Made by a program: the position numbers and the translations under genes
Assembly (NCBI GenBank): GCA_964429215.1
Contig: CAYSAY010000003.1
Location: forward strand, 8,369-72,368
Length of the DNA stretch: 64,000 nucleotides
DNA from: an uncultured Gammaproteobacteria bacterium
GTDB taxonomy: Bacteria > Patescibacteriota > Microgenomatia > UBA8517
Direction of reading: 5' to 3'
Notes under the pieces: model-generated
Told to the model about the DNA's origin: nothing
Seen by the model: the letters and a program-made list of their open reading frames with translations, nothing else
Database searches by the model: none
In this document: positions 37,455-38,153 of the stretch, piece after piece
Layout of the letters: each line of letters opens with the position of its first letter
How positions within the stretch are numbered: the first letter of the stretch is position 1

Positions 37455-38153
37455 ATGTATCCCACAAATCAAACTGCCTACATAGAAATAAGAGGAGCAA
37501 CTGGAGGAGATGAAGCAAAACTCTGGGGACAGGACTTACTTCGAATGTATTCTAGATTTGCCACAAAACGAAACTGGAAACAAGCACAAATTGACGAATT
37601 GACCCTAAAAGTGTCAGGTTTTGAAGTTTTTGATCTATTAAAGAATGAATCAGGAGTACATAGAGTTCAAAGAGTTCCAACAACTGAAAAAAGAGGAAGA
37701 ATACACACCTCCACAGCTACAGTCGTGGTCTTACCTGAAGTTAAGGAAACAGACGTTAATATTAACCCACAGGACCTTGAGTGGCAATTTACAACTGCAG
37801 GTGGACATGGTGGACAGAATGTAAACAAAGTGGCTACAGCTGTTAGACTAAGGCATGTTCCTTCTGGAATTGTGGTTCAAGCTAGAGAGGAAAGATTTCA
37901 AGAACAAAATAGAATTATTGCTTTGGCCCTACTTCGTACTAAACTTTTTGAAAAGCAGGAGGAAGAAAAGTTAAAAACTGTTGCTGGATATAGATCAGTT
38001 ATTGGAAAAGGAATGAGATCTGAAAAAATACGTACATATAACTTTCCACAAGATAGAATTACAGATCATAGGATTGGAAAGTCTTGGGGTAATTTGGAAG
38101 TTATAATGGATGGAAGTATGGAAAAGGTAGTGGAACTTACAAAAGGTCTCTAA
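37455..38153 (+). CDS. prfA: Peptide chain release factor RF1-like protein lacking N-terminal domain 1
   Basis: GGQ motif (AGGHGGQNVNK), RF1-type PxT tripeptide (RVPTTEK), and C-terminal RTYNFPQDRITDHR. The ORF begins at the domain 2 boundary (YIEIRGATGGDEA). Upstream 30 nt contain stops in all frames. Confidence 0.85.
   Translation: MYPTNQTAYIEIRGATGGDEAKLWGQDLLRMYSRFATKRNWKQAQIDELTLKVSGFEVFDLLKNESGVHRVQRVPTTEKRGRIHTSTATVVVLPEVKETDVNINPQDLEWQFTTAGGHGGQNVNKVATAVRLRHVPSGIVVQAREERFQEQNRIIALALLRTKLFEKQEEEKLKTVAGYRSVIGKGMRSEKIRTYNFPQDRITDHRIGKSWGNLEVIMDGSMEKVVELTKGL

Follow-up and report, generated by a model that had tools for sequence, protein, structure and literature searches.

A putative housekeeping release factor 1 composed of domains 2 to 4 only in Woesebacteria-type Microgenomates

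In canonical class-I release factors, domain 1 contacts the L11/L7-L12 stalk region of the ribosome and mediates the RF3-driven recycling of the factor. These factors have been described as almost universally conserved proteins of three modules (PMC6514570). The closest functional precedent for the protein described here is E. coli RF1 from which domain 1 was removed by engineering (Mora, Zavialov, Ehrenberg and Buckingham 2003, cited after PMC1586002), a study that comprised RF1 and RF2 constructs of the domains 2-4 architecture. According to the latter source, the RF1 construct retains codon specificity, is active in peptide release in vitro and functional in vivo, and is unable to promote nucleotide exchange on RF3; slow growth was reported for the construct, whose host possesses RF3. 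RF3 itself is non-essential and is absent from small genomes (PMC1586002). Among natural proteins, PrfH (RFH) also lacks domain 1 and combines a codon-recognition-like domain with a GGQ motif (PMC1586002), while ArfB (YaeJ), ICT1 and C12orf65 have the GGQ hydrolase domain and a basic tail at the C-terminus and are devoid of codon-recognition domains. Full-text literature searches returned no published description of release factors without domain 1 in the Candidate Phyla Radiation (CPR), and neither a survey of release-factor diversity (PMC6514570) nor a survey of ribosome reduction in CPR (PMC9297842) mentions canonical factors of this kind in these bacteria.

Here we analyse a gene found at positions 37455-38153 (forward strand) of the window, i.e. 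the whole 64-kb stretch of DNA under study, which begins with ATG, ends with TAA and codes for 232 amino acids. Profile matches, alignments with proteins of known structure and a structural model agree in presenting it as an orthologue of prfA, an RF1 of domains 2, 3 and 4 only, and we put at roughly 80% the probability that it is the housekeeping prfA of an ultra-small, Woesebacteria-type member of the Microgenomates (CPR/Patescibacteria), cut down to the superdomain for codon recognition (domains 2 and 4) and the GGQ hydrolase domain 3, and terminating translation without the contact to RF3 and the stalk that domain 1 provides.

The N-terminus of the protein is MYPTNQTAYIEIR. The Pfam PCRF match (residues 6-90) covers only positions 100-194 of the 194-position profile, that is its C-terminal half, while the Pfam RF-1 domain is matched in full by residues 98-206 (37746-38072), a span that, judged by the secondary structure of the model, takes in domain 3, the peptidyl-tRNA hydrolase with its long helix, and then leads back into domain 4. 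Alignment to the two prfA equivalogs of NCBIfam begins at profile positions 104 of 347 and 112 of 361 and extends through to the end, with scores of 297 bits for PRK00591 (curated cut-off 400) and 282 bits for TIGR00019 (cut-off 423); both lie below the cut-off, and the shortfall corresponds to the absent domain 1. The protein thus departs from the formal definition of RF1 in two respects: the equivalog score and domain 1 itself, as the profiles begin at position 104-112 and an in-frame stop codon stands three codons before the ATG. Both Pfam domains of RF1 are present, and RF1 models fit better than RF2 models. The closest solved structures are those of T. maritima RF1 (chain residues 86-318) and E. 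coli RF1 (109-342). All this agrees with the preliminary description, made from the sequence, according to which the ORF matches RF1 from the domain 2 boundary to the C-terminus, lacks a domain 1 of about 105 residues (as the half-match to PCRF and the structural alignments starting at residue 86 or 109 likewise indicate) and has intact PTT and GGQ motifs, which we read at residues 75-77 and 119-121. That description was correct in every particular, and we add to it two further deletions. One is located in the domain-2 hairpin, where gaps in the alignments with solved structures and in the multiple alignment place the loss of about 10 residues between D48 and E49 (37596-37601), at the site where E. 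coli RF1 carries SASEGEHGGYKE; the other removes the last ~12 residues of the C-terminal tail. The hairpin deletion is common to all Microgenomates-type RF1s in the multiple alignment, including those that retain a part of domain 1.

Compared with the canonical RF1 of E. coli, T. thermophilus and T. maritima (TIGR00019/PRK00591), the 232-aa protein has the same domains 2, 3 and 4, with 40-46% identity over them, the same PxT, GGDE and GGQ elements and the same predicted fold as ribosome-bound RF1, whereas domain 1 of ~105 residues, its linker to domain 2, the 10-residue hairpin and the C-terminal tail are missing. In Microgenomates-type RF1s, a Trp (KLW/KIW) occupies the position of the typical RF1 ALFA motif, and RF2 has a Trp (DW) at the equivalent site; several RF2s of Parcubacteria, full-length as well as domain-1-less, are similarly short at the hairpin, in a comparison comprising no canonical RF2. 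Three other identities were tried for the protein and rejected. RF2 was discarded on account of the PTT instead of the SPF loop and of a prfB score of 195 bits, below the 297 bits of prfA. The match to ArfB (47 bits; cut-off 100) is limited to residues 99-134, and the 232-aa protein, unlike ArfB, ICT1 and C12orf65, keeps domains 2 and 4. PrfH was likewise set aside (62 bits; cut-off 167): its decoding loops are altered and its neighbour is of the RtcB type, whereas the loops of the 232-aa protein are those of canonical RF1, and its neighbours are rpmE and a gene for an HtrA-like protease.

The elements responsible for decoding and catalysis are all in place. The GGDE sequence (G17-E20; 37503-37514), corresponding to the helix tip with which RF1 recognises the first base of the stop codon in the established RF1-ribosome structures, has G17, G18 and E20 invariant in an alignment of 83 RF1 sequences. 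The PxT 'tripeptide anticodon' is represented by PTT (P75-T77; 37677-37685) and surrounded by conserved Q72, E78, H84 and T85, with Q72, P75, T77 and T85 among the invariant columns of the alignment; in the 120 closest protein clusters the tripeptide is PTT, PST, PAT, PQT or PVT without exception. The catalytic GGQ (G119-Q121; 37809-37817) is invariant in the 83 sequences. An AlphaFold2 model of the protein (pLDDT 88.3) superimposes on ribosome-bound RF1 of T. thermophilus and E. coli with a TM-score of 0.83-0.85 (normalised to the query) and an rmsd of about 2.9 Å, so that the comparison of structures that the preliminary description had proposed ends in a match of the predicted fold. The model resembles the open, ribosome-bound form more closely than the closed form seen in crystals, which a preference of the predictor alone may explain.

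Upstream of the gene lies rpmE for ribosomal protein L31 (37110-37424, forward strand; 104 aa), identified from the ORF list and by the Pfam Ribosomal_L31 match of the identical gene in L002. The spacer between the two genes (37425-37454, forward strand) comprises 30 nt and is composed of A and T only. It contains an in-frame TAA at 37446-37448, three codons before the prfA ATG, and no ATG, GTG or TTG occurs between this TAA and the start codon, in keeping with the earlier statement that stop codons in the spacer leave no room for an alternative start. A 14-nt unit, TTAATAGTTAATAA, is present twice in perfect tandem at 37421-37448, overlapping the stop codon of rpmE, and this duplication provides stop codons in all frames of the spacer. 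No Shine-Dalgarno motif was found in the spacer ahead of prfA, which is normal here, because just 6 of the 73 genes of the window carry such a motif at a distance of 5-20 nt ahead of the start; judged from these sequences, initiation of translation in the window appears to be largely independent of Shine-Dalgarno pairing. The 73 ORFs end in TAA (48), TGA (16) and TAG (9), and since all three stop codons are in use, the genetic code is standard and the functions of both RF1 and RF2 are required.

In its gene content the window is an ordinary CPR chromosome, with gyrB, gyrA, dnaB, hisS, cysS, ssb, efp and ychF among others; RtcB is absent from the surroundings of prfA. Several other proteins encoded here are short for their families, namely a class II aminoacyl-tRNA synthetase of 402 aa with a ProRS-like core and an anticodon domain (61900-63108), a CysRS of 414 aa (56428-57672) and a YchF of 324 aa (41968-42942), which fits the shrinkage of proteins that is general in CPR (PMC9297842). 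Genes of mobile or defence type, including an IS200-like Y1 transposase, a tyrosine recombinase and a Fic protein, are interspersed among the housekeeping genes (5251-5889, 20139-21071 and 52211-53194), and just to the left of the window (L070, 18750-19016 and 20423-21046) a ParE toxin and an AbiEii-like protein are encoded inside a type IV pilus cluster. At 44884-46583 a sortase gene adjoins one whose 383-aa product has an ice-binding-like domain and is probably a surface protein anchored by the sortase. Queries with E. coli PrmC, L11 and L7/L12 gave no match in the window or in the related loci, which says nothing about their presence in the genome.

The short gene is a property of the lineage. 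At 84-100% identity, the 120 closest protein clusters stay without exception within 226-243 aa; they come from assemblies of Woesebacteria or Microgenomates, some of them from contigs of 549-842 kb. A genome scan, restricted to one genome per species, yielded 60 loci of Woesebacteria and Microgenomates, including four closed chromosomes; in 57 of them a short RF1 ORF (228-257 aa, depending on the start codon called) follows directly after rpmE and is preceded, at a distance of a few codons, by an in-frame stop. The question raised at the outset, whether the truncation extends throughout the lineage, is thereby answered in the affirmative, both for the 57 of 60 species-level genomes and for all 120 clusters. 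With dN/dS values of 0.046-0.083 against close relatives, at saturated dS, the gene in the prfA position is under strong purifying selection. Hence the natural protein differs from the engineered construct in that its deletion is fixed across a lineage and maintained by selection rather than made artificially. Many of the metagenome-assembled genomes that carry the Woesebacteria-type gene (L005, L011, L013, L016, L019, L020, L026, L027, L030 and others, all third-party assemblies) are titled 'uncultured Gammaproteobacteria bacterium', 'Alphaproteobacteria bacterium' or 'Nevskiaceae bacterium', and the taxonomy on these records looks wrong.

Relatives of the gene form a series of decreasing size, from about 350 aa through 288-331 aa and 256 aa to ~232 aa. 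The intermediates (L056, 316 aa; L057, 288 aa; L059, ~291 aa; P0121, 303 aa; P0126, 331 aa) have some 70 residues left at the N-terminus, whose only counterpart in the alignment is the distal helices of domain 1, and their match to the prfA profile begins at position 45-58, while P0122 from Amesbacteria (256 aa) has ~20 residues of domain 1 left. In a quick neighbour-joining tree, calculated on the shared domains and without support values, the 57 fully truncated sequences make up a single clade nested among the intermediates, which are themselves placed among full-length RF1s. Two other clusters of short RF1s, P0125 and P0127, branch elsewhere; the full-length P0129 (345 aa) is placed next to P0127 in the tree, and all three genes lie directly after L31. 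As the short gene and the full-length P0129 gene share this location, the short gene is the positional orthologue of prfA, and the conserved rpmE-prfA arrangement claimed in the preliminary description holds for 59 of the 60 related loci, in which L31 is encoded directly upstream of RF1, as well as for P0129. The alignments and the tree suggest that within the Microgenomates domain 1 was eroded stepwise, its proximal helices first and the remainder later, and that it was probably lost from RF1 more than once.

A comparable truncation affects RF2 in Parcubacteria, another superclade of CPR. An RF2-type protein, P0217, was among the representative matches of the RF1 search and served as the starting point for the collection of RF2 relatives; the first relatives reached from it were RF2s of Parcubacteria in which domain 1 is shortened, such as P0318 (315 aa), encoded in the arrangement prfB-ftsE-ftsX. 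More than 115 RF2 clusters of 228-245 aa (within P0390-P0507), from Jorgensenbacteria, Paceibacterota, Brennerbacteria, Colwellbacteria and Minisyncoccia, lack domain 1 altogether and start a few residues before domain 2. Like the RF1 described above, these proteins are about 230 aa long, begin just before the first strand of domain 2, share the hairpin deletion and occupy the canonical position of their gene, in this case prfB-ftsE-ftsX, but they differ from it in their SPF or SPY loop, their GGxDAxDW motif and their RF2-type C-terminus. We know of no published name for them. One of them, P0419 (234 aa; L073, 6001-6705), is matched best by the RF2 model, from profile position 113 (prfB 279 against prfA 193 bits), and in its prfB-ftsE-ftsX context the unrelated preceding gene ends 3 nt before the ATG, so that there is no room for domain 1. 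As the Woesebacteria-type RF1 and the Parcubacteria RF2 are both short, loss of domain 1 is recurrent in CPR and affects both class-I factors.

The RF2 of the Woesebacteria lineage itself was not found in the window, in the 10 kb to its left or in the 60 related loci; the route through P0217 yielded RF2s of Parcubacteria only, and the route through prfB-ftsE-ftsX synteny gave no match to FtsX in the Woesebacteria data. A degenerate DNA pattern for low-GC RF2 run against metagenomes returned, among the matches listed, only ordinary RF2s on low-GC, mostly marine contigs, and those of the listed matches with a non-fragmentary ORF retain a complete domain 1, the GG motif being preceded by 111-153 residues. 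An AT-rich genome alone, therefore, does not remove domain 1. Among the 120 listed matches of the P0217 query (P0271-P0389; 116 of RF2 type, mostly from Parcubacteria), 82 have SPY instead of the canonical SPF. Some CPR proteins of RF2 type, with SPF or SPY, carry an RF1-like C-terminal domain (RSEKIRTYN...DRVTDHR), and RF1s apparently of the same group are 61-69% identical to P0217; both observations together draw on P0217, P0332, P0381 and P0286 and on P0284, P0312, P0343 and P0363. The sequence pattern suggests RF1/RF2 gene conversion or chimeras.

The reading of the 232-aa protein as a housekeeping RF1 has to be weighed against other explanations. Since release-factor paralogues without domain 1 are known, PrfH being the example (PMC1586002), and proteins of this type bear the NCBI name 'peptide chain release factor-like protein', one might suppose that it serves as an accessory factor with a specialised or rescue function, a paralogue in the manner of PrfH or ArfB, alongside a canonical full-length RF1 encoded elsewhere in the genome. 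The name, however, follows simply from the equivalog score below the cut-off, the matches to prfH and ArfB remain below theirs, the decoding loops are those of canonical RF1 without alteration, and the neighbour is not RtcB but rpmE, the same as for the full-length RF1 of a related clade. Moreover, the intermediates connect the short form continuously with full-length RF1, and a search for a further release-factor gene came back empty for the window, the adjoining 10 kb and about 1 Mb of related loci. An accessory role is in our judgment improbable, and of the two options that the preliminary description had left side by side we favour the one in which the primary RF1 of this lineage has shed domain 1, given the lineage-wide occurrence, the purifying selection, the position, the graded series, the intact motifs and the lack of resemblance to PrfH.

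Being a helical module with a flexible attachment (PMC1586002), domain 1 could be imagined as a separate small protein, made from a gene elsewhere and joining RF1 in trans. Yet domain-1 baits (from E. coli RF1, the intermediates, three full-length RF1 relatives and the N-terminus of one Parcubacteria RF2) matched only the N-termini of three intermediate genes, and no separate ORF for domain 1 appeared in the window, in the 10-kb extension or in the 57 fully truncated loci; the graded shortening, too, resembles erosion rather than fission, and such a split strikes us as more improbable still than the accessory paralogue. As for a product of mis-assembly, a wrongly called start or the fragment of a pseudogene, contigs from metagenomes may indeed be chimeras, and fragments account for many of the short release factors in the protein libraries, but the architecture recurs in 60 independent assemblies, closed chromosomes included, which disposes of the assembly error named in the preliminary description as a possible refutation; furthermore, the in-frame stop stands three codons upstream, 30 nt separate the end of the L31 gene from the ATG, dN/dS is 0.05-0.08 and all catalytic motifs are intact. 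The chance that the gene is an artefact or is dying seems negligible to us.

For the short protein as the housekeeping RF1, we infer that it is active, specific for UAA and UAG, independent of RF3 and the sole RF1 of its genome. Because every decoding and catalytic element is kept, release dependent on UAA and UAG is its most likely activity, and because the engineered construct is active, the natural protein is plausibly functional. It would bind to the ribosomal A site at UAA and UAG, read the stop codon with the tip of the GGDE helix and the PTT loop, insert GGQ into the peptidyl-transferase centre and thereby release the peptide, as canonical RF1 does, and would then leave the ribosome without help from RF3 through domain 1. 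Given that engineered RF1 without domain 1 works but cannot act on RF3, the natural form would be expected to do without RF3-assisted recycling and without contact to the stalk. A point against this reading is that some organisms not known to possess RF3, such as T. thermophilus, keep domain 1; where organisms without RF3 retain the domain, it must have roles independent of RF3.

In practical terms, RF1 and RF2 proteins that score below the curated cut-offs are named 'release factor-like' or 'PCRF domain-containing' in annotation, and the short forms may, we presume, be counted as missing markers (TIGR00019, TIGR00020) by pipelines for completeness assessment and phylogenomics of CPR. As regards the biology, we incline, by a narrow margin, to the view that CPR repeatedly dropped domain 1 of their essential class-I factors, from RF1 in Woesebacteria and others and from RF2 in Jorgensenbacteria and other Parcubacteria, with intermediates that still exist, that the decoding and hydrolase modules suffice for every routine termination event in freely replicating cells, with recycling of the RF3 type and the contact to the stalk dispensed with, and that domain 1 is an accessory part, possibly a later addition. 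If this is true, these bacteria represent a natural experiment in which domain 1 is dispensable for life, so far shown only with engineered constructs in E. coli. The natural minimal factors, together with their intermediates, would provide material for studying what domain 1 contributes to the rate of association, to the contact with the L11 stalk and to recycling by RF3, and the short RF1s would also allow study of how the ribosome compensates for its loss.
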